From positions 4,380-68,379 of the forward strand of contig CAYQVF010000009.1 of the NCBI GenBank assembly GCA_964421045.1: a stretch of DNA of 64,000 nucleotides, written 5' to 3'. Positions 2,167 through 45,213 of the stretch are shown here, in pieces (positions within the stretch are counted from its first letter, which is position 1; every line of letters begins with the position of its first letter). A model generated the notes under the pieces. The model was not told where the DNA came from. It searched no databases and worked only from the letters and a program-made list of their open reading frames with translations. The translations under genes were made by a program, and so were the position numbers. The stretch is from an uncultured Chromatiaceae bacterium (GTDB taxonomy: Bacteria; Pseudomonadota; Gammaproteobacteria; JAADHS01).

Positions 2167-3420
2167 TTAATGATCGTGAGCGGCGCCGGATTTTTCAATG
2201 TCGGCTTTGATGACGTAGCTGTTTTCGCTGACATAACGGGTACCCGGTTCCAGGCCACCCAACACTTCAGCCCATTCACCTGTTTGCAGGCCAAGATCGA
2301 GCATACGAACCTCGTACTGCTCTCCTATTTGCGCATAAACTACCGTGAAATCCCTGAAAGCTTGTAGACCGGTTCGTTTCACCGCTAAAGCGGCGGCGTG
2401 TTCTCTCACGGTTATTGCGGCGCTAATATGACGTCCGGGGCGAAGTTGGCCTTTTTTGTTATTCAATACGACGCGCACCTTAACCGTTTGATCGGTTTCA
2501 GCCGTTATGTTGATTTGAGAGATTTTGCCGTTGGCCGATTGCTTGCTTGTTGTATCGGTAATGGTCACGGGGGCACCCATTTTTACTTGATGTAAATCAC
2601 TAGGGAAGATGAAAAGCTCCGCCCAAACAGAACGGGTATCCATAATTGTGAACAGTTGACGTCCATCCGTTTGTTCGCCGACGTTAGCATCACGTTGAAT
2701 AATGACGCCATTGATAGGCGCATTTACCGTAAACAGTTGCAAGCTTTCATTGCTTTCAACCGTCGCCAATTTTTGACCTTTGCGAACCTGTTCACCCAGT
2801 GCGGGTGAGACTGATTTAATCATGCCATCAAAGCGAGCGGTGATTTTTCGCAGACGCTCATTATTGGCTGCGATCTGACCGTATACCGTGATGGTTTCTT
2901 GCATCAGCACAGAACCTGCAACCGTGGTGCCGATTTCTAGAGCTTCGGCTACCGCAGCTTCAATTTCAGTCCTGCCCTCAAAACTATCGTATTGCCAGGT
3001 ATGTGTTAACCCATCGTGAGTTGCTTTGATCGCAACAGAGAATGAATGGGGTTCATAAATAACGGTATCACCGCGTAAAACGTCACCCTGAGGCTTGAAT
3101 TTGATGTTTTCTTGTTTACCACCCAGACGAGTCAAAGTAATATCAAGATCGATCGCTTCAGGTGCCAATGCTTTGTTATTTTTTGTTGCCCAGGCACGAA
3201 ACTCTGGCGGCACACCCGTCTCGAAAATAGCCAGTTCAAGGATGAAATCGCCATCTTTAAATAATCGCCCTCGATGCGGACCTTTTTCCGGTTCTGCCTC
3301 AATCGTTTCACCATGAGCCTCTTTTTCTGGCATTGTTTTTTCTAAATCTACGTTACCGCAAGCGGTGAGAAAAATCGCCCATAGAAATAGCAATATAGAA
3401 TTTTTCACCATTTTTTTCAT
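2167..3420 (-). CDS. czcB: Efflux RND periplasmic adaptor (membrane fusion protein, CzcB/CusB family), lipoprotein
   Basis: 417-aa protein with a signal peptide plus Cys (LTAC lipobox). The C-terminal region is typical of HlyD-like membrane fusion proteins. It overlaps the outer-membrane-factor gene by 4 nt and is 12 nt upstream of the RND pump gene. Confidence 0.75.
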   Translation of the reverse strand: MKKMVKNSILLFLWAIFLTACGNVDLEKTMPEKEAHGETIEAEPEKGPHRGRLFKDGDFILELAIFETGVPPEFRAWATKNNKALAPEAIDLDITLTRLGGKQENIKFKPQGDVLRGDTVIYEPHSFSVAIKATHDGLTHTWQYDSFEGRTEIEAAVAEALEIGTTVAGSVLMQETITVYGQIAANNERLRKITARFDGMIKSVSPALGEQVRKGQKLATVESNESLQLFTVNAPINGVIIQRDANVGEQTDGRQLFTIMDTRSVWAELFIFPSDLHQVKMGAPVTITDTTSKQSANGKISQINITAETDQTVKVRVVLNNKKGQLRPGRHISAAITVREHAAALAVKRTGLQAFRDFTVVYAQIGEQYEVRMLDLGLQTGEWAEVLGGLEPGTRYVSENSYVIKADIEKSGAAHDH

Positions 3421-4697
3421 AGCCGTTTTCCTGGTGCTGTTTGTTTTAAGTGAAGGGTTGGCTGTATCAAACGCACGCCCGTTAATCGTTCAATTTCAAT
3501 AATATTACGATGAGCATCAATACTGGCTTCAATGAGGGTATTGTGCGCATCCAGAACCTCATCCTGAACACTCCGCCACTCTAAATAACTGTAGCGTCCA
3601 AGCTGGTATGCGCGACGAGTTTGAGTGAGTGCTTGCTCAAGGGGAGGTATAATTTCGTTACGCACAGTTTCAATAACATACAAACTGCGTTGCAATTTTT
3701 CATAGATGACATAGAGCGCTGTTTCGATGCGAATCCGTGCCGCGTGCTCTTCACGGTTAGTTTGAGCCAGATTAGCACGCGCTTCCGCAATACGGCCTGG
3801 GTTAAGTGTGCGTTTGCCAAAGGGGATGCTAATGCCCGCGACAAGGGCTTGATCATGGTCTCTGTTATTATGACGAACCCCTGCATTCACACGCCAGCTT
3901 GGTTTTTTTTGAGCCAGTGCGAGCTGTAACTCGGCTTTTTTTAGAAGCTGGTCTGACAATAGTCTTTCGAATTCAGGGTTTTGTGCTAGCTGCAATTTAA
4001 GGGTTACAAAGGATGCCACCTGAATAGGACGAGTAATATCACCTTCAACTCGTGAAAAAGTAGGTATGGTCTCTCCCCATTGAGCCGCCAAACGACGATT
4101 CGCTGAAATTCTTTTATAGTCAATGTCTTTGCGTTCCAACTTTCTGCGAGTCCATTCAGCTTGAGCTCTGAGCCGTTCAGCATCCGGTGTTTTACCTGCT
4201 TTCACGCGTTTATCTACCACTTTAATGGTTTCTTTTGCGAGCTGAACGGTTTTATCCGCATTCACTTCACGAGCCTGGTAGGCCAAGCTGGCCAGATAAC
4301 GACGTGCGGTTTCAGCTGCGGCATCCAATTGCCTGATATCCGCTTCAACAGCAACCAAGGAAGAACCGGCGCGAGCTGCATCAATATGACGCTGTCGAAC
4401 TCCGCGTTCCAGCACCCAACTAATACTCAGTGTTGCTTGCGCACTGTCTACGCTTTTATTATTTCCCGTGCCTAACACATCTTCGAGTTCGAAATTTAAT
4501 TCAGGGCTGGGTGCCAACTCCGCTTGCAGCACGCGCCCTTGCTGTGCTTCAATTTGATAGTCAAAGGCTCGTAGTTCCGGGTTGTGTTCAATGGTTTTGG
4601 TCACGGCTTCATGCAAGCTCATCGTGCGTGCCTTCGCCTCTAAAGTTGGGGCTGCACTCACGGCTGAACTGAATAAAAGTAAAAAAAATAAGGCCAT
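3417..4697 (-). CDS. czcC: Outer-membrane efflux protein (TolC/CzcC family)
   Basis: The ORF extends to 4799, but the probable start is the Met at 4697 (MALFFLLLFSSAVSA signal peptide). Its length and coiled, repeat-rich sequence fit an outer membrane factor, and it is first in the C-B-A order. Confidence 0.7.
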   Translation of the reverse strand: MALFFLLLFSSAVSAAPTLEAKARTMSLHEAVTKTIEHNPELRAFDYQIEAQQGRVLQAELAPSPELNFELEDVLGTGNNKSVDSAQATLSISWVLERGVRQRHIDAARAGSSLVAVEADIRQLDAAAETARRYLASLAYQAREVNADKTVQLAKETIKVVDKRVKAGKTPDAERLRAQAEWTRRKLERKDIDYKRISANRRLAAQWGETIPTFSRVEGDITRPIQVASFVTLKLQLAQNPEFERLLSDQLLKKAELQLALAQKKPSWRVNAGVRHNNRDHDQALVAGISIPFGKRTLNPGRIAEARANLAQTNREEHAARIRIETALYVIYEKLQRSLYVIETVRNEIIPPLEQALTQTRRAYQLGRYSYLEWRSVQDEVLDAHNTLIEASIDAHRNIIEIERLTGVRLIQPTLHLKQTAPGKRL

Positions 4698-6727: not shown

Positions 6728-6822
6728 ATGTACGGATTACGCCGTGCAGTCTGGGCAAAAAAAGTCGGTTGTCGTGTAGCCAAATCGGTTTTTAACAGGA
6801 AGCTCAAAAAAGCAATACTGAG

Positions 6823-6900
6823 GTGTAGTAGCTCAAATCTAAACTAACAGACACCCTAAAAAAACGGGTAACTGTCAGATTAGGTCTGAGCTACTACATC
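6823..6900. terminator. Imperfect ~20-bp inverted repeat (GTGTAGTAGCTCAAATCTAA ... TTAGGTCTGAGCTACTACATC) between convergent genes
   Basis: Seen directly in the sequence. The arms are 6823-6842 and 6880-6900 with a ~37-nt spacer and 2-3 mismatches. It sits between the 3' ends of the TelA-like (+) gene and the LVIVD (-) gene. No U-run follows, so it may not be an intrinsic terminator. Confidence 0.3.
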
Positions 6901-7111
6901 TAATTGTTTGATTAATTCTTCAACTGTAATTTTCGACATTATATATCCTTTATTTGATGCAACGTAACAACTGCGATTAAAAACATAGTCGAGTAGAGCC
7001 AGGCGTGCGCAATCTTAGGTGAAGAGTTTTTCCGACCTGTACTTTTTGCGGTTGTGCAGCGGGTTCCTAGTTTCACCCTCATCCACTTTTCCTATGCCCT
7101 CTCTAATATAC

Positions 7112-15198: not shown

Positions 15199-15304
15199 AA
15201 TCTAGCATCCAGTCTTAAGTATTGGCGAGCGTCCTTTGTACTCTATGTCTCCATCTTTCGTCAATGAAAACATTATGTTTTTTACGATGTGATGTGCTAA
15301 GAAT

Positions 15305-15454
15305 CTGTAAATAAATAACTTGGCATTCTACGCTCGCTAGCACTTCGTCTCCACAGCTCACGCCCCTTAGCGACTTCCATAAAAGCAAGGTGCTTATACT
15401 CGTTACCAGAGACGGAATGATGGACAAGTAAAATATTAAGTTATTTATTTACAG
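15305..15454. repeat. Perfect 17-bp inverted repeat (CTGTAAATAAATAACTT / AAGTTATTTATTTACAG) with a 116-bp spacer in an AT-rich divergent intergenic region
   Basis: Seen directly: the arms are 15305-15321 and 15438-15454. It sits in the 600-bp region between the TBDR operon start and the gshA start. A second 8-bp inverted repeat (GTGCATAG-N21-CTATGCAC) occurs near 15545-15581. Confidence 0.5.
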
Positions 15455-15805
15455 GCTCTAACCCAAAGTGGCGTCAAAAAACCTCACTTAGTGCCACAAA
15501 AAATGCAAATCTATATAACCCTAAAAAACGCAGTTGATCCACGGTGCATAGCTCAATCTTGCAGTTAAGGAACTATGCACATTCCTAATTCAACATTAAT
15601 ATAATGACTATTTTTAAATAGAGACTAGAATACTCAGGCTTACTCATCGTACAATATACCCATGACGATTGAGATTTAGGTATAATTACACGTCCTCTTC
15701 ATTACCATCGGGGCGTTAAAATTTCTCGCAATAGTAAACTACATCTAAACCTCAAACGCCACGGGTATAGACCCTCAACATTATATATTTAGGAATTCAA
15801 AACTA

Positions 15806-20796: not shown

Positions 20797-22200
20797 CTAC
20801 CCTACAGAAGAAGATTCTACAGGACTATTTTTAGGCACCTTGAAAGCACCAGGATCAACCTCATGACGATGTAATAATTTATAGAACTCGGTACGATTTC
20901 GTTTGGCTAATCTTGCAGCCTGACTCACATTGCCCGCTGTAATTTTCAAAATTTTCAAAATATAATCTTTTTCAAAGCGAGCTTTTGCATCTTTCAAAGA
21001 AGGTAAGTCCATCGGCACCTCTCGTAGCGCACCTTTAACTAAGCTTGCAGGAATCACCTGCGTTGTACATAAAGTAAACGCTTGCTCCACGATGTTACGT
21101 AATTGCCGTACATTTCCCGGCAAGGGCGCGAGCAATAATAATTCAAGAGCAGCAGGTGAAAAATTTTTCAAAGCTTTGTCGTATTTATAAGACAACTCAC
21201 TTAAGAATTTATTCACGATTAAGGTAATATCTTCCCGTCGCTCTGATAATGGAGGAATTTCCAACGACACGACGTTTAATCGATAATACAAATCTTCTCG
21301 AAATTGCCCTAAACGTATTTCTTCATTAATATCCCGGTGTGTCGCCGAAATCAGGCGAATATCAACGGCGATGTCTTGAGTAGAGCCTAATACACGAATG
21401 ACCCGCTCCTGAATCACTCTTAATAGCTTCGCTTGTAAAGAAACAGGCATATCTCCAATTTCATCAAGAAAAAGTGTGCCTCCATTTGCTTCTTGTATTA
21501 ATCCCTTGTGGTTTCTTGTCGCTCCAGTAAAAGCACCTTTGTTATAACCAAATAACTCCGACTCTAAAAGTTGCTCTGGAATAGCAGCACAATTAATCGT
21601 GACAAAGGCCTTGTCTTTTCTGGGGCTCGCACGGTGTATTGCCTGAGCAAAAAGTTCTTTACCTGTACCGCTATCGCCTCTAATAAAAACACTGGCATCG
21701 CTTTGCGCAACTAACCAGGCCTGCTGGATTAAATCTTCCATTAACGAGCTTCGTGTAATGATCTCTTTACGCCATTCATCGTCAACATTAGTCGATGATG
21801 AGACTTCGGGCATGCTACTGCCCATCCCCACCAACCCCACTGCTTTTTCTACCTGGGATAAAAGATCTTTACTGTCAAAAGGTTTAGTTAAAAAGCCAAA
21901 AACACCTTTGTGCGTCGCATTGATCGCATCAGGTATAGAACCATGCGCCGTTAGAATAATAACGGGCAATGAAGGGTTGTCTCTTTGAATCACTTCTAAT
22001 AGCTCTATGCCATTCATTCCGCCCATTTTCAAGTCAGTAATAACTAGGTGAGGGCGTGAAATCGTTAATTGGTCTATTGCCTTTTCCGCGCTATCTACTG
22101 CAGTGACGTCATAATTTGCCGTTTTAAGCCGTAATGAAAGTAATTGCAAAAGATCTTTGTCATCATCGACAATTAATATTGTTGCTCGATTCGTTATCAT
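20797..22200 (-). CDS. Sigma54-dependent two-component response regulator (NtrC family; GlrR/QseF-like)
   Basis: 467 aa with an N-terminal REC domain (ILIVDDD...VITDLKMGGMNG) and a central sigma54-interaction AAA+ domain (GDSGTGKELFAQAIH; GAFTGA; ESELFGY). The C-terminus carries a Fis-type HTH. Confidence 0.85.
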   Translation of the reverse strand: MITNRATILIVDDDKDLLQLLSLRLKTANYDVTAVDSAEKAIDQLTISRPHLVITDLKMGGMNGIELLEVIQRDNPSLPVIILTAHGSIPDAINATHKGVFGFLTKPFDSKDLLSQVEKAVGLVGMGSSMPEVSSSTNVDDEWRKEIITRSSLMEDLIQQAWLVAQSDASVFIRGDSGTGKELFAQAIHRASPRKDKAFVTINCAAIPEQLLESELFGYNKGAFTGATRNHKGLIQEANGGTLFLDEIGDMPVSLQAKLLRVIQERVIRVLGSTQDIAVDIRLISATHRDINEEIRLGQFREDLYYRLNVVSLEIPPLSERREDITLIVNKFLSELSYKYDKALKNFSPAALELLLLAPLPGNVRQLRNIVEQAFTLCTTQVIPASLVKGALREVPMDLPSLKDAKARFEKDYILKILKITAGNVSQAARLAKRNRTEFYKLLHRHEVDPGAFKVPKNSPVESSSVG

Positions 22201-22829
22201 GGTGTAACGGTTCCTTCATTCATATCTCGTTGAATTATACTCGTTTCTATCGACTTAAGCAGTGTCAACTGGCGCTTGATTTTTTCTCTTTCCGCTTCGC
22301 TTTCAGACAGTTTATCTTTTAATTTCTGGTTTTTCTTTTCCAGTTCACTGTACTTGGAATCCAGAGAATACATCTCTTGGCTCAGTCGCATATTTTCTTG
22401 TAACCAACGACGATACTGTTTTCCCAAGAAAGCCAGAAAGTGCTCTGATTGGCTACGCTCCGACGAGTCATCTTTTAAATTTCCGTCTCTTATTAGAGAC
22501 AGAACTTGCTCTGCTGACTTTGTACTTTTATCGCTATAAGCCTGTAATAAAATCAACTTATATCGATTTAACATGCTCGGCTGATTCGTAAAATCAGCCT
22601 TTACTTCAACCAATAACTGCGCTAACTGTTTATCGCTAAGCCCTTCATATATCTTGGTAAATTGACTTATTTCTTGTAGCTCATAATAGGCAGAATATTG
22701 GGTCTGAAACAAAACCTGGCGTCCTGTGTTGCCTACTCCCGATGTTCGTTCAAACGCAATACAACCCGTTAACAAGAACATCAAACCAACCAGAACCAGC
22801 CTTGCTAAAGTATATCTAGCATAATTCAT
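22197..22829 (-). CDS. Coiled-coil lipoprotein (QseG/YfhG-like position between kinase and regulator)
   Basis: 210 aa. It has a lipobox (LTGC) after a signal peptide and a C-terminal coiled-coil (KYSELEKKNQKLKDKLSESEAEREKIKRQL). It overlaps both neighbouring genes by 4 nt. Confidence 0.5.
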   Translation of the reverse strand: MNYARYTLARLVLVGLMFLLTGCIAFERTSGVGNTGRQVLFQTQYSAYYELQEISQFTKIYEGLSDKQLAQLLVEVKADFTNQPSMLNRYKLILLQAYSDKSTKSAEQVLSLIRDGNLKDDSSERSQSEHFLAFLGKQYRRWLQENMRLSQEMYSLDSKYSELEKKNQKLKDKLSESEAEREKIKRQLTLLKSIETSIIQRDMNEGTVTP

Positions 22830-24286
22830 GCCGCCACCATATTTAAATTCATCGGTAACGTCACTCTGAAGTGCGCACCAGAGCTGGCATCTTGAACGAC
22901 CCTGATGCTACCTCGATGTATATCAACCAACTCACGGGCAATAGACAAACCTAACCCACTCCCTCTGATGTCACCATGAGGCATGACACTCCCTCGATAA
23001 AACGATTCAAAAACCCGCTCCGTGTCTTCTGGGGAAATACCCGGCCCATAGTCTTTGACATCCAGCAAAAGTTCATTTTTACGCCTTCTTAACTGAATCA
23101 GCAATGGACTCCGGTCAGGAGAATATTTAATCGCATTCGAAATTAAATTATCGATAACAATACGTAATTTTTCACCATCACCGTTCAGCTCAATAGGCAC
23201 ACAATTCAATCTAACTTGAATACCCTTAGCTAATAAGGCCAGGTTGTGGTCAGCCAAAACATTATTAACAATCTCACTCATGGAAACCAATGAGACATTC
23301 AGGCTCGCTGTACCCGTTTCTAACATATTAAAACTCAGTAAATTTTCTATCATTTTTTGTAACAACAGCGTATTTCTTTGTATCAATTGAGCGACCTCGC
23401 GCTGCTCCGTATTCAGTTTGCCTAATAAGTCTTCAGCAAGTAAGGCACTGCCTTCTTTTACGGCGGTTAATGGCGTTTTTAATTCATGCGAAACATGCCT
23501 GACAAAGCTGCCTTTTTTACGCTCTAAATCAGCTAATCTTTTCCGCAACCAATTCAACCGGGTACCAATACGTTGTAAATCTTCAGGGCCGGTCACCACG
23601 ATTTTTTGATCCAGCTCTCTTTCACCCAACTGTCGTATGGCTTTGTCAATTTGACGTACGGGTTTCGATAAGATATTGGACAACAATACTGCAAAAGCCA
23701 GCGTTCCTGGTACCAAAGCGATGGCCTGCCACAACAGGACTGTTTCTGCATTTTTTGTCATTTCCGCCAAAGCATTAACTTGATCGTTTATCCACGTCTG
23801 ACTTTCTGACAAAATAGATTCTGCTAACAGGCTCAAGCCAGTATATTCCTCCTCAGGGTTAAATGCGCGCTCTGTAGAACGACTTGCACGAAGAAGGAAT
23901 TCAAATAATATATTTTCTTTAGCAATTAATATTTCAATCTGACTCTTTAAAAATTCCGTATCAATCAATCCCGAAAGCGTCTCTGCTGTTTGATGAAACT
24001 GCTCTCGTCTACTTTTGTAGCCACTTAACAAACTCTTATCTTTCAAAATTTGATATTGTCTTGCATTTCTCTCTAACACGGTAATTTGATCTGTTAATAA
24101 GCGACTCACCGTAGCAACTTGTGCAGAACGATAGACTGTCGATTCACTTTTGACAAACATCTTGTCCAAATAAAAACCCATATGAACCAACGCCACAGCC
24201 AGTGGTAACGTAATTAATGCAAACGCCATTAACAGCAGTTTAAAAAAGGACTTTGGATGATAATCAAAACGAGGTTTTTTGAACAT
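22826..24286 (-). CDS. Sensor histidine kinase (2 TM, periplasmic domain, HAMP, HisKA, HATPase; GlrK/QseE-like)
   Basis: 486 aa with an H-box (VSHELKTPLTAV) and HATPase motifs (DNLISNAIKYSP, DYGPGISPED, GSGLGLSIAREL). Two TM segments flank a periplasmic domain of about 150 aa. Confidence 0.8.
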   Translation of the reverse strand: MFKKPRFDYHPKSFFKLLLMAFALITLPLAVALVHMGFYLDKMFVKSESTVYRSAQVATVSRLLTDQITVLERNARQYQILKDKSLLSGYKSRREQFHQTAETLSGLIDTEFLKSQIEILIAKENILFEFLLRASRSTERAFNPEEEYTGLSLLAESILSESQTWINDQVNALAEMTKNAETVLLWQAIALVPGTLAFAVLLSNILSKPVRQIDKAIRQLGERELDQKIVVTGPEDLQRIGTRLNWLRKRLADLERKKGSFVRHVSHELKTPLTAVKEGSALLAEDLLGKLNTEQREVAQLIQRNTLLLQKMIENLLSFNMLETGTASLNVSLVSMSEIVNNVLADHNLALLAKGIQVRLNCVPIELNGDGEKLRIVIDNLISNAIKYSPDRSPLLIQLRRRKNELLLDVKDYGPGISPEDTERVFESFYRGSVMPHGDIRGSGLGLSIARELVDIHRGSIRVVQDASSGAHFRVTLPMNLNMVAA

Positions 24287-24310
24287 TTTACACCTTTCCA
24301 GCTAACGACC

Positions 24311-24326
24311 GTCTCTTTTTAGAGAC
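24311..24326. promoter_or_regulatory. Short perfect hairpin/palindrome GTCTCT-TTTT-AGAGAC, 25-40 nt upstream of the kinase start codon
   Basis: Seen directly. On the minus strand it precedes GGAAAGG and the ATG at 24286. Confidence 0.3.
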
Positions 24327-24512
24327 GAATTGTCGCATACTTATTCTAACCATGAAAGAACAAAGGATCTTCCAAGCTCTTTAAATTGTATCTATTTTAC
24401 CATTTTTTACGACCTGGATTCCTTGCATTTAAAGTATTGAAACCTGAGCCATGGTCGAGCATAATTAAGACATTGCCAGAGGCTGTCTGAGAATAGGGAT
24501 CGTCGTAAGAAC

Positions 24513-24979
24513 CTCGGTATTCCCTTGTGGGGCGAAGGCCATTTTGCATCCGCAAGGAACATAAAAGTCCGGTTTTTCGATCAAATGATGAAATACATCC
24601 TTATATTTCATCCCGTTGGGGGGTGGCTTCGCGATTCCAATTCGTTCCCGACGAATGGGTAAGGCGGATAATGAGCCTATTGAACGAAAATAATCGGAAA
24701 AATAGGCCAAAATGGCTTGGTTGTAGTACGAATATAGGGATATGGAGCTGCCGAAAGTCAGTCTGTTCTCGGACTGCCGCCCAGGAGGCTATCGGCAACT
24801 AGATTAAGCGATTGCGAAAAACCCATTATGACTCACAATAAGCCTATTCGCCCCACTTATTTCCTGGAAGTGAACAGGAATGACGAAGCAACCTAATGGG
24901 GTATTGTTTATTCATAAAACTTGGCTTTTATGCTCCTTGCGGATGCAAAATGGCCTTCCCCCCACAAGGGGATACCGAG
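24513..24979. repeat. ~467-bp element bounded by 55-bp terminal inverted repeats (3 mismatches); candidate MITE or structured RNA locus
   Basis: Seen directly. Arm 1 (24513-24567) is CTCGGTATTCCCTTGTGGGGCGAAGGCCATTTTGCATCCGCAAGGAACATAAAAG. The reverse complement of arm 2 (24925-24979) is CTCGGTATCCCCTTGTGGGGGGAAGGCCATTTTGCATCCGCAAGGAGCATAAAAG. A 357-bp core lies between them. The repeat creates the spurious shared peptide PCGCKMAF in two opposite-strand ORFs. Confidence 0.6.
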
Positions 24980-25075
24980 ACTCTCGCAACGATGACTATG
25001 CTCGGGCAACCTTCTAGGTCGCGTCATCAAAAACAGCCTTCACAAATCGACAATCATTATAAACAGGAGAACAAA

Positions 25076-25867
25076 ATGGGATTTTTGCAGGATAAAAAGG
25101 CGCTCATTGTAGGACTGGCCAGTAATCGTTCCATTGCATGGGGCGTTGCAAAAGCAATGCATCGAGAAGGAGCTTCTCTGGCATTTACCTACCAAAACGA
25201 CAAACTCAAAGGGCGTGTTGAAAAATTTGCGGCTGAACTCGATTCGGATATCACCTTACCCTGCGATGTAGCCCAAGACGAACAAATTGAAGCGGTCTTT
25301 GAGCGTCTGGATGATTTTTGGGATCACATCGACATTATTATTCATTCAGTGGCATTTGCACCGAGCACAGAGTTAGAGGGTGACTATCTCGATGCCGTCA
25401 CTCGTGAAGGATTTCGTACCGCACACGAAATCAGTTCATATAGCTTTGCAGCGCTTGCCAAAGCCGGTAGAAATATGATGGAAGGACGCAATGGTGCCTT
25501 GCTAACCTTAAGCTATATCGGCGCTCAAAAATCGGTTCCTTATTACAATGTCATGGGGCTAGCCAAAGCCAGCCTGGAAGCCAACGTCCGTTATATGGCC
25601 AGCTCCTTAGGCCCAGACAATATCCGCGTCAACGCCATCTCCGCCGGCCCGATCAAAACCCTTGCCGCAGCAGGGATCAGCAATTTTCGCAAAATGTTAA
25701 AACATGTAGAAGAAAATGCGCCATTGCGCCGCAACGTGACAATAGATGATGTTGGCAACGCGGCGGCCTTCCTATGTTCTGACTTAGCCGCAGGGATAAC
25801 CGGTGAAATAACTTATGTAGATTCAGGCTATAATACGGTTGGTATGACCATGCCTGACGAAGAATAA
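25076..25867 (+). CDS. fabI: Enoyl-[acyl-carrier-protein] reductase (NADH), FabI
   Basis: The real start is the ATG at 25076 after AGGAGA; the upstream part of the listed ORF is an artefact of the inverted repeat. The 263-aa protein is an SDR with FabI motifs ([19 protein letters not shown]; SIAFAPS; [17 protein letters not shown]; [11 protein letters not shown]). Confidence 0.88.
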
Positions 25868-27877: not shown

Positions 27878-27963
27878 AGGATTTGAACTCTTCCGTAATC
27901 AAATTATGAATTTAGTATTTTAACACGAGATTGATTGATCGGTACGGAGGGATATGAATTGAT

Positions 27964-28040
27964 GGCGGAGCGGACGGGACTCGAACCCGCGACCACCGGC
28001 GTGACAGGCCGGTATTCTAACCAACTGAACTACCGCTCCA
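27964..28040 (-). tRNA. tRNA-Asp (GTC)
   Basis: Reverse complement GGAGCGGTAGTTCAGTTGGTTAGAATACCGGCCTGTCACGCCGGTGGTCGCGGGTTCGAGTCCCGTCCGCTCCGCCA. This gives a cloverleaf with a GTC anticodon loop and the GGTTCGAGTCC T-arm. Confidence 0.9.
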
Positions 28041-28048
28041 ATAATTTT

Positions 28049-28123
28049 GGTGGGTGCTGAGGGGATCGAACCCCCGACCCTCGCCTTGTAAGGGCGATGC
28101 TCTACCAGCTGAGCTAAGCACCC
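28049..28123 (-). tRNA. tRNA-Val (TAC)
   Basis: Reverse complement GGGTGCTTAGCTCAGCTGGTAGAGCATCGCCCTTACAAGGCGAGGGTCGGGGGTTCGATCCCCTCAGCACCCACCA. The anticodon is TAC. Confidence 0.9.
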
Positions 28124-34444: not shown

Positions 34445-34529
<85 letters not shown>

Positions 34530-34586
34530 AAATATTATTATTAGCAGCTATTTTAAGATGATTTCTGTTAATCACCTTATTCAATT

Positions 34587-34663
34587 TGGGGTGGATGATG
34601 GGGCTTGAACCCACGACCACCGGAATCACAATCCGGGGCTCTACCAACTGAGCTACACCCACC
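34587..34663 (-). tRNA. tRNA-His (GTG)
   Basis: Reverse complement GGTGGGTGTAGCTCAGTTGGTAGAGCCCCGGATTGTGATTCCGGTGGTCGTGGGTTCAAGCCCCATCATCCACCCC, with the extra 5' G characteristic of tRNA-His. The anticodon is GTG. The exact 3' end is uncertain. Confidence 0.85.
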
Positions 34664-34750
34664 ATATTTTTCGCGTAACCGTCCAGCGTCATTCCAACCG
34701 CTGAATCGTTGCTTCCTTACTACTGGCCTGACAAGCCCTTTTAATAAAAA

Positions 34751-34827
34751 TGGCGCGCCTGGCAGGATTCGAACCTGCTACCCTCGGCTTAGAAGGCCGA
34801 TGCTCTATCCTGATGAGCTACAGGCGC
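34751..34827 (-). tRNA. tRNA-Arg (TCT)
   Basis: Reverse complement GCGCCTGTAGCTCATCAGGATAGAGCATCGGCCTTCTAAGCCGAGGGTAGCAGGTTCGAATCCTGCCAGGCGCGCCA. The anticodon is TCT. Confidence 0.88.
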
Positions 34828-34912
34828 AAGTCACCCTGCGTACCTACCAAAAATAACGTGGCATAGACCTTCACAGCTTTTGGTATAAAGACTGCTCTGT
34901 CTGCCAATTTCT

Positions 34913-34989
34913 TGGTCGGGGTAGAGGGATTCGAACCCCCGACATCCTGCTCCCAAAGCAGGCGCGCTACCAGACTGCGCTATACCCCG
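34913..34989 (-). tRNA. tRNA-Pro (TGG)
   Basis: Reverse complement CGGGGTATAGCGCAGTCTGGTAGCGCGCCTGCTTTGGGAGCAGGATGTCGGGGGTTCGAATCCCTCTACCCCGACCA. The anticodon is TGG. Confidence 0.88.
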
Positions 34990-38497: not shown

Positions 38498-39019
38498 AGC
38501 TATTCCTTTTATAACTGTAATTTGAATGACAATGGTAGGCTATTTCTATCAAAGAATATACCCTAGAAAACTTCCAGCAGTGCCCACCCCCAACCTACGT
38601 CCAGGTCTAATTGAACAAAAAAATACAGGTAACGTGCTTTTTGAGAAGCTAATCTACAGAGTCATCACGAAAAGGTATAAGGTCTCTACCAACCAAACGG
38701 CTAGGTATAATGACACAAGTTCAGGCGTGCTCAACCTAGAAAACGCAGTTGGACGCAAATCTGTACCCCAAAGGCACTTCTTTCAGAGCGTATAGCGCAA
38801 AATATTGATTCGAATAACGTAGCGGGAAAAGTCATGCTCACCTTAACGATAATGAAACTTTTCCCCGAATAGGGTAGGCAGATCAAGAACTTGTGCTATA
38901 CATCGTGGATCAACAGCGTTTTTTAGGTTCAATAACTCTCGACGCAATAACACAAAAAAGGGCCATTAAGAACGACCCCTTGATTTACAACCTCCAGCCT
39001 AAGCAAAAATGCTCTAATC

Positions 39020-43818: not shown

Positions 43819-45213
43819 CTAACCGCGATGTTTCAGATTAAACCAGGCCAGTTGATGATGTAGCTTAACCACATCACCGACAATAATGAGCGTGGGTGCA
43901 TGAACTTTTGCCTGAGCAACGATCTCGGCCAGACTGGCCAGTGTACCGCTGAAAACACGTTGCTTACTGGTGGTGCCTTGCTCAATCAAAGCGGCAGGAC
44001 GGGTAGCGGGCGCACCATGGGCTTGTAAGGCGGCACAAATGATATCTACGCCCTTTAAGCCCATATAAATAACGACGGTTTGCTGAGGTTGTGCGAGCAT
44101 AGACCAATTGAGATTAATGCTACCATCCTTAAGTTGCCCGGTGACGAAGCTAACGGATTGAGCATAATCTCTATGGGTCAGCGGTATGCCGGCATAGGTG
44201 GCGCACCCTGAGGCCGCCGTGACACCCGGGACAACTTGAAATGTAATATTATTTTCGGCTAACAGGGCAATTTCTTCTCCCCCTCGACCAAAAATAAACG
44301 GGTCACCGCCTTTCAGACGTAATACCCGCTTCCCTTCTCTAGCCAGATCAACCAGAGTTTGATTGATTTCTCCTTGCTGCATAGCATGATTTGCCCGATG
44401 TTTACCGACATAAACCCGCTCTGCATCGCGGCGTACCAAATCCAATATTTCGCTTGAAACCAACCGATCATAGAGCACAATGTCAGCCTGTTGCATTAGC
44501 CTCAGGGCTCGAAAAGTCACCAAATCCGGGTCTCCAGGGCCGGCACCCACTAAATAGACTTCACCTGTCGTTGACGCCAAGGTAATGTCATTATTCAGCT
44601 CAGCATGCAACGCCTGGCGCGCCTGTTCTTCTCTACCTGAAAAAACCAGCTCAGCAACCGATCCACTTAATACTCGTTCCCAAAAACGTCGGCGTTCAAC
44701 AGTTTCACTAAAACGTAATTTAACGTGCTCTCTGAACGTACCCAACAGACCGGCCAATTTTCCATAGGCCGTCGGAATCATCGTTTCCAGACGGGCACGT
44801 AACAAACGCGCTAAAACCGGTGAAGTGCCTCCGGTTGAAACAGCAATTAATACCGGGTCGCGCCTGACAATAGAAGGCACCGTAAAAGTACACAAATCAG
44901 GACAATCAACCACGTTAACTGGAATATAACGAGCGGTAGCAGTACGAGCGACGAGTTGATTAACCTGTTGGTCATCCGTTGCGGCAATAACCAGAACGAT
45001 GCTATTGATGTCTTCTGGAGAAAATTTTCGCGCATGGTGTTTGATCTGCTGCTGATTCAATGCCATTTGCAAGCGACGACAAAGTGCAGGAGCAACAACC
45101 GTAACTTGTGCCTGGGACTGCAATAACAAGTTAATTTTTCGTGCTGCAACTTCACCGCCGCCAATAATCAAGCAGGGTTGATCCTTGACTTTGAGTGTAA
45201 TGGGGAAATGCAT
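43819..45213 (-). CDS. cysG: Siroheme synthase (uroporphyrinogen-III C-methyltransferase / precorrin-2 dehydrogenase / ferrochelatase)
   Basis: 464 aa with an N-terminal NAD-binding dehydrogenase part (LIIGGGEVAARK). The C-terminal methyltransferase part has VYLVGAGPGDPDLVT and a conserved tail. Confidence 0.88.
   Translation of the reverse strand: MHFPITLKVKDQPCLIIGGGEVAARKINLLLQSQAQVTVVAPALCRRLQMALNQQQIKHHARKFSPEDINSIVLVIAATDDQQVNQLVARTATARYIPVNVVDCPDLCTFTVPSIVRRDPVLIAVSTGGTSPVLARLLRARLETMIPTAYGKLAGLLGTFREHVKLRFSETVERRRFWERVLSGSVAELVFSGREEQARQALHAELNNDITLASTTGEVYLVGAGPGDPDLVTFRALRLMQQADIVLYDRLVSSEILDLVRRDAERVYVGKHRANHAMQQGEINQTLVDLAREGKRVLRLKGGDPFIFGRGGEEIALLAENNITFQVVPGVTAASGCATYAGIPLTHRDYAQSVSFVTGQLKDGSINLNWSMLAQPQQTVVIYMGLKGVDIICAALQAHGAPATRPAALIEQGTTSKQRVFSGTLASLAEIVAQAKVHAPTLIIVGDVVKLHHQLAWFNLKHRG

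Follow-up and report, generated by a model that had tools for sequence, protein, structure and literature searches.

A long inverted repeat upstream of fabI in an uncultured gammaproteobacterium is probably formed by two adjacent IS1182-related MITEs

The window, i.e. the whole stretch of 64,000 nucleotides analyzed here, contains a 537-bp block of apparently inserted DNA (24478-25014) between fabI and a divergently oriented glrK-type gene. This block very probably consists of two MITEs of the same IS1182-related family, which lie side by side in opposite orientation, and not of one element with 55-bp termini. The two units, L and R, are small non-coding transposon relics, an ordinary kind of mobile DNA. 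The long inverted repeat within the block is the homologous sub-terminal region of these oppositely oriented units; since L and R are homologous and inverted, their arms form an inverted repeat of 106 nt. The features of the locus are:

22826-24286, minus strand: glrK-type sensor kinase gene, named GlrK by several sources, an undisrupted neighbour and first gene of the divergent operon
24437-24465, plus strand: sigma-70-type promoter TTGAAA-17-CATAAT directed towards fabI, 10/12 matches
24476-24479, no strand: CCAG, left flank of L and candidate copy 1 of the 4-bp target duplication, which requires the loss of one G from the left tip of L
24478-24781, plus strand: L unit, read as a 304-bp MITE and expanded family member by its IS-type ends, its profile matches and its absence from the relative L004
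24478-24496, plus strand: left inverted repeat of L, 17/19 versus the L015 IS repeat
24513-24567, plus strand: left 55-nt core copy, internal to L, 52/55 versus 24925-24979
24763-24781, minus strand: right inverted repeat of L, 16/19 versus the L015 IS repeat
24781-24784, no strand: CCAG junction, right flank of L and left flank of R, in the same abutted layout as IRR-CTAG-IRL in L015 and L016
24784-25014, minus strand: R unit, read as a 231-bp MITE of the same sub-family in opposite internal orientation by its IS-type ends and homology to L
24784-24802, plus strand: left inverted repeat of R, 14/19 versus the L015 IS repeat
24925-24979, minus strand: right 55-nt core copy, internal to R, 52/55 versus 24513-24567
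24996-25014, minus strand: right inverted repeat of R, 15/19 versus the L015 IS repeat
25014-25017, no strand: CTAG, right flank of R, whose flanks CCAG/CTAG match at 3/4 positions
25076-25867, plus strand: fabI (enoyl-ACP reductase; Pfam adh_short_C2, 300 bits), its ATG preceded by AGGAG

The inverted repeat and its absence from relatives

The segments 24513-24567 and 24925-24979 had originally been described as reverse complements with three mismatches, and a direct count bore this out (52 of 55 positions matched). A perfect duplex of 25 bp is contained in this stretch. The weaker pairing predicted for about 15 bp further out does exist, but it reaches about 33 nt outward and a further 18 nt inward. 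A repeat search delimited the full inverted pair as 24480-24585 and 24907-25012, with 106-nt arms that are 80% complementary and lie 321 nt apart; the numbers of matching positions are 22/33 for the outer segment, 52/55 for the core and 11/18 for the inner one. Within the window a 35-nt piece of the arm occurs at these two sites only, and it had no match in 100 shuffles. The peptide PCGCKMAF was present, as had been noted, in two ORFs on opposite strands. One of them, with 323 aa (24896-25867, plus strand), is fabI with a spurious N-terminal extension; for the other, with 81 aa (24465-24710, minus strand), a homologue search found none. Two further short ORFs, of 91 and 65 aa, are contained in the interior. 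Because the region is 100% identical in three independent assemblies (L001 from NCBI, L002 and L003 from Logan), it is not an assembly artefact. The source assemblies read through the block unbroken, which would speak against many near-identical copies there.

Corresponding loci of relatives were retrieved through their GlrK homologues, and five spacers were aligned. The spacer between fabI and glrK measures 790 bp in the window versus 238-256 bp in three lineages with 77-79% identical GlrK (L010/L011, L012/L013 and L014), in which the same divergent arrangement is present. These outgroups match the window up to about position 24478 and then again just past 25014. Because the alignment breaks and resumes at these points and the spacers of the relatives are short, the block is interpreted as extra DNA that was inserted. 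Removal of the block together with one duplication copy leaves a spacer of the outgroup length class. A closer relative, the MAG contig JAADHS010000186 (L004), with 98% GlrK identity and about 92% genome-wide identity, has a spacer of 470 bp. Exactly 306 bp, made up of L and 2 nt, are missing there, and the breakpoints coincide with the boundaries of the inverted repeats; R is retained in a diverged 218-bp version that includes the right arm. An otherwise conserved site is thus polymorphic for the presence of the units, both of which are missing in the 77-79% relatives (L010, L012, L014). The original prediction had considered that the 55-nt arms might turn out to belong to a conserved fabI leader. 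This is contradicted by the same relatives, which lack the whole block. In L004 the stretch orthologous to the right core has a 12-nt deletion and about seven substitutions, and the outer right arm differs by one mismatch in about 50 nt. Constraint on this outer arm was considered and dropped, as the stretch is too short given the genome-wide identity of about 92% to L004.

The divergent operon comprises the GlrK-type kinase gene, a gene for a 210-aa protein (22197-22829, minus strand) and a gene for a sigma-54-type response regulator. The 210-aa gene has no Pfam match; in position it corresponds to the E. coli gene for a small protein that separates glrK from glrR. The start of glrK and the promoter of fabI flank a perfect short palindrome, GTCTCTTTTTAGAGAC (24311-24326). 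Versions of it with minor changes recur in each of the five aligned spacers, those of the 77-79% relatives among them, and it could serve as an operator for the divergent promoters.

Several further sites were observed in the window. A 37-nt intergenic motif, CCTAAAAAACGCAGTTGATCCACGGTGCATAGCTCAA, occurs at 15520-15556 and 38891-38927, in two inverted copies that are 23 kb apart and 89% identical. The distance to the gene downstream is about 250 nt for the copy before gshA (Pfam GshA) and about 400 nt for the copy before a methyltransferase-like gene on the opposite strand. As both copies are oriented alike relative to the downstream gene, the motif may be a shared regulatory site. Also intergenic and upstream of gshA is a 32-nt inverted repeat (15300-15459; 81% complementary, 96-nt spacer). 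A 43-nt inverted repeat between two convergent long ORFs (6814-6908; 77% complementary, 9-nt loop) may act as a terminator in both directions or be one more small repeat element. Two tRNA clusters are encoded on the minus strand, at 27966-28123 (two genes) and 34448-34989 (four genes). By the first of them an alignment gap of about 170 bp separates the window (27933 to 27950) from L004 (10782 to 10969), which may be another indel polymorphism.

Termini, family members and the partner insertion sequence

The window was scanned with the 19-nt repeat of an insertion sequence (IS) from contig L015, a motif taken independently of the window, at a cut-off of at least 14/19 matches. Shuffled windows give about one such match per 64 kb. 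Four matches (14-17/19) were located at the unit boundaries. The sole match outside the block (44084-44102, 15/19) was rejected; it falls within an ORF of 464 aa, and one match of this kind is expected by chance. The consensus of the 19-nt terminal repeat is GGAGGCTGTCCGAGAAYAG. As the four repeats stand in the order + - + -, they delimit two complete units, which are separated by 2 nt. The size of the units (304 and 231 bp, with 159-234 bp in the metagenome copies described below) and their lack of coding capacity, the 81-aa ORF having no homologue, agree with MITEs, and no transposase was found in the 64-kb window, in L001 or in L004. The original prediction of a MITE-like mobile element was therefore right as to the kind of DNA, but its extent was not, since the block spans 24478-25014 and holds two units, each with its own 19-nt repeats. 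The 55-bp arms had been taken for terminal inverted repeats. They are an internal, sub-terminal segment common to both units, as an alignment of eight family members (A1) makes clear.

The homology of L and R in inverted orientation runs across the 106-nt arms. Between their inner halves, also inverted, only a weak local alignment was obtained, with a score of 33 versus a null of 18 +/- 3 that was reached by 2 of 300 shuffles. The outermost 33 nt of the units are 67% alike versus 95% in the internal core, and in terms of pairing the core reaches 95% and neighbouring parts of the same units 61-67%. An outer part that is less alike than the core is the reverse of the pattern of recently active MITEs and is a point against the two-MITE reading.

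The partner IS was reached via a piece of the block interior that matched L012 beside a truncated transposase ORF, the relatives of which lie on short contigs. On three of these (L015, L016 and L017), which stem from related hydrothermal-vent metagenomes in other samples than the source, fragments of the IS were found with unit-type terminal repeats around transposase pieces. On the NCBIfam model for IS1182 (NF033551; 488 positions) these pieces cover positions 3-184, 260-412 and 323-486, with E values of 1e-35 to 1e-44; being fragments, they each score below the full-length cut-off. The ends of the IS are GGAGGCTGTCCGAGAATAG in L015 and GGAGCCTGTCCGAGAACAG in L016, and L017 holds a bounded 1031-bp derivative. 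The repeats of the window units match those of all three contigs, and their termini are thus of the IS1182 type. An IS1182-type transposase supplied from elsewhere in the genome would recognize the 19-nt ends and move the units. In L015 (1193-1232) and L016 (1-29) IS ends are abutted and form a perfect palindrome, IRR-CTAG-IRL, which could stem from copies in tandem, from the junction of a circle or from misassembly at a palindromic repeat.

Further copies of the family were searched with a gapped pattern made from two blocks common to the L unit and the L012 copy, which was run on metagenome contigs. Four new contigs were recovered. Each carries one complete non-coding element of 159-234 bp with the same 19-nt ends, at a different intergenic locus with different flanks and neighbouring ORFs, and all four are flanked by CTAG/CTAG. 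The canonical metagenome members measure 159-161 bp. An nhmmer profile built only from these four copies matched the L unit in two collinear segments (profile 2-69 to 24479-24588, E 7e-4; profile 67-160 to 24660-24780, E 5e-17) and gave a weak match, in reverse orientation, to the outer end of the R unit (E 0.05); there was no further match in the rest of the window. As its own match is weak, the family membership of R rests on its termini and its homology to L. The copy beside fabI in L012 was matched from profile position 18 on; its left end is missing, and it abuts an IS1182 remnant. The family therefore comprises four complete copies at independent metagenome loci, the truncated one in L012 and the two window units. 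The original prediction had proposed a search for additional copies of the 55-bp terminus; other copies of the family do exist. They define a previously unlabelled IS1182-type MITE family of uncultured vent Gammaproteobacteria, with 19-nt ends and a CTAG target.

Shared blocks occur throughout alignment A1, together with segments that are restricted to the window L and R units and the L004 R unit. Among these is a 23-nt insert within the 55-nt arm, present only in the window L and R and, in part, in the L004 R unit. Because of these restricted segments, L and R are regarded as oppositely oriented members of a single expanded sub-family. The genome, viral, metagenome, plasmid and phage collections searched yielded no second copy of this sub-family, which is marked by the 55-nt core: the arm 22-mer GGCCATTTTGCATCCGCAAGGA had no exact match in the genome and viral contig collections, a degenerate arm 24-mer had none in metagenome contigs, and blastn with the whole block gave no match in plasmid and phage collections. 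One of the metagenome members (L018, 3287-3520) measures 234 bp owing to a 73-nt insert where the window L and R carry a sub-family-specific insert, which suggests that this internal site is a variable or insertion-prone spot in the family.

The locus in L012, a 79% relative, is also rearranged downstream of fabI (2700-3930), where ppiD is not found. This segment holds the IS1182 transposase remnant, the truncated MITE copy and two overlapping minus-strand ORFs (75 and 57 aa), which by eye resemble a toxin-antitoxin pair. A second IRR-like motif, TTCTCGGGCAGACTT, is located at 2719-2733.

Order of insertion and alternative explanations

The layout of the window is CCAG-[L]-CCAG-[R]-CTAG. The target-site duplications that had been proposed for examination are perfect in the metagenome copies (CTAG/CTAG) but imperfect in the window, where R has a 3/4 match and the flanks of L read GCCA/CCAG in strict register; for CCAG/CCAG (4/4) one G would have to be missing from the left tip of L. 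A 4-bp direct repeat is tabulated for ISPse1 of the IS1182 family (PMC3281130) and for MITEs of about 160 bp that are partnered with the IS1182-family element ISMac2 (PMC3852290). The family would insert at CTAG and duplicate it, and every insertion would regenerate the target on each side. Because a CTAG-like target is regenerated on each side, the second unit could have been placed exactly at the flank of the first. The locus may thus serve as a clean example of stacked insertions at a target regenerated by each insertion. R would have been inserted first, because it also occurs in L004, has more strongly decayed ends and gives a weak match to the profile. For L, insertion after the lineage split is slightly favoured over loss from L004, which might have occurred by slippage between direct repeats of about 12 nt that flank the unit. 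The 95% identity of the 55-nt core is probably due either to gene conversion acting between the two inverted units or to a selective advantage of pairing; the former is the simplest reading and the latter the more interesting one. The decay of the core in L004, where the partner is absent, fits both.

Slippage is also part of another explanation, in which a MITE dimer, a composite foldback element that makes up the whole 537-bp block, was transposed in one piece via its outer ends at 24478 and 25014, the sister MAG L004 having later lost the left half between the short direct repeats CCAGAGGCTGTC and CCAGGAGGCTATC. For this pair of ends, too, the flanks (CCAG and CTAG) match at 3/4 positions, the direct repeats around L would favour a slippage deletion stimulated by the long inverted repeat, and the inner part of the L004 R unit complements the window L better than the window R does, which fits an older, longer palindrome. 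The internal junction, however, has two complete inward-facing IS-type repeats that are spaced exactly as at IS-IS junctions, and the halves differ in age, as the profile match of L is far better than that of R (E 5e-17 versus 0.05). In addition, the internal CCAG equals the left flank, so that sequential insertion needs one fewer mutation, and no second copy of the block is known. A composite element is thus unlikely. The profile matches also bear on a further possibility without any transposition, in which a template switch during replication would have duplicated spacer DNA locally in inverted orientation. A single spacer indeed contains both arms at a short distance from each other, and the 55-nt core was not encountered in any distant copy; but L matches the external family profile much better than R and is not a copy of it, no part of the block is present in the outgroup spacers that could have served as a local template, and the four IS-type inverted repeats are located at the unit boundaries. 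We regard such a duplication as scarcely credible.

The original prediction offered a long-stemmed structured RNA as its own alternative, and both a gene for a structured non-coding RNA and a fabI leader dedicated to cis-regulation and kept by selection were considered here. Both strands of the block fold as one long rod, far better than shuffles (z -12.7 and -13.9), the 55-nt core is better paired than its surroundings, and the block is positioned between the promoter and fabI. The adjoining operon is also GlrK/GlrR-like, and the glmY sRNA gene precedes glrK in E. coli, so that the block might be a positional glmY counterpart. The extreme fold score is nevertheless automatic for any long inverted repeat and for this reason uninformative on function. 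At gathering score no Rfam family matched the block, GlmY/GlmZ-like RNAs were detected nowhere in the window, and a search of 24250-25150 at E<=10 returned two chance-level hits (E about 2), neither of them GlmY or GlmZ. Nor is the block conserved, since the relatives with 77-79% identical GlrK lack it and the 98% relative lacks half of it, and a consensus scan of 24200-25150 found no terminator-like site before fabI. The transposon termini and the family copies at unrelated loci account fully for its origin. An RNA gene or dedicated leader is therefore highly improbable, and the RNA alternative of the original prediction is abandoned, although the hairpin would probably still be transcribed passively as part of the leader of fabI. 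The more specific candidate, a glmY counterpart, was dropped in view of the missing GlmY/GlmZ match, the lack of conservation and the absence, by eye, of a promoter with sigma-54 spacing.

Implications for fabI and relation to known systems

Two separate insertions of IS1182-related MITEs remain the preferred reading. The promoter at 24437-24465 is the sole promoter-like site in 24200-25150 according to the consensus scan, and both of its hexamers are invariant in five of five aligned spacers, the 77-79% relatives included. The block starts about 14 nt past its -10 box. The scan found no outward promoter in the R unit, where only a weak TTGGCT-17-CAAAAT (8/12) was seen by eye. Because the promoter is upstream of the block and neither another promoter-like nor a terminator-like site follows before fabI, the fabI mRNA probably starts upstream and, judged from the sequence, would carry a hairpin of about 535 nt within a 5' leader of about 600 nt. 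Should this leader influence the expression of fabI, mobile DNA would here have naturally rewired an essential gene of lipid synthesis. That the MITE pair has been co-opted as a regulatory leader of the essential fabI, as a substrate of a double-strand RNase or as a switch of translation or stability, is a speculative idea to which we give little credence. Were it true, selection for pairing, and not gene conversion, would explain why the core stayed 95% matched while the rest drifted to 61-67%.

For annotation, the stacked units have direct consequences. In L001 (4420-5337) the gene caller lengthened fabI by 42 residues into the R unit, giving 305 aa versus the true 263. Stacked MITEs can thus mislead gene callers, here by a false fabI N-terminus, as well as repeat-based element finders. 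On the reading preferred here, the annotation of the 106-nt inverted repeat beside an essential gene is corrected to two ordinary MITEs, and not to a new RNA or an element with long terminal inverted repeats.

For IS30, IS21 and IS911, junctions at which IRR and IRL abut have been described in IS circles or in tandem copies of the IS. The ends found here likewise face each other across few bases, as IRR-CTAG-IRL in L015 and L016 and as IRR-CCAG-IRL in the window. The window ends, however, belong to two diverged units, for which a regenerated CTAG-like target suffices as an explanation, and the junctions of L015 and L016 are on short metagenome contigs and could be assembly artefacts.

With respect to function, the closest analogy to a MITE hairpin in the fabI leader may be seen in Neisseria, in the Correia repeat-enclosed elements, which resemble MITEs, are small and palindromic and are found near genes, inserted at targets that contain TA. 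Through co-transcription they become part of mRNA leaders, and there their hairpin is a substrate of RNase III and can alter expression. They are not known to have a partner IS. There is no sequence relationship between them and the window units, and the long stem is formed here by two separate elements instead of one.

The origin of the window units is best compared with the IS1182 family itself. ISPse1, a member with 1653 bp, has inverted repeats of 16/16 and a 4-bp direct repeat (PMC3281130). The length of this repeat agrees with the 4-bp duplication of the family, which is perfect in the metagenome copies, and the unit ends match an IS with transposase pieces that fit the IS1182 model, whereas the window units encode no transposase and the IS was seen only as fragments in other samples. 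In Methanosarcina acetivorans, MITEs related to ISMac2 measure 160-169 bp (PMC3852290), close to the 159-161 bp of the canonical metagenome members. Both groups are small and non-coding, share their termini with an IS1182-family IS, have a 4-bp direct repeat (imperfect in the window units) and occur in several copies. This likeness is one of organization; the sequences are presumably unrelated, and the hosts differ, those of the present family being uncultured vent Gammaproteobacteria. The window copies are moreover expanded (304 and 231 bp), contain sub-family-specific inserts and are abutted head to head. MITEs partnered with IS1182-family elements are thus already documented, and the pair in the window adds a member to them.
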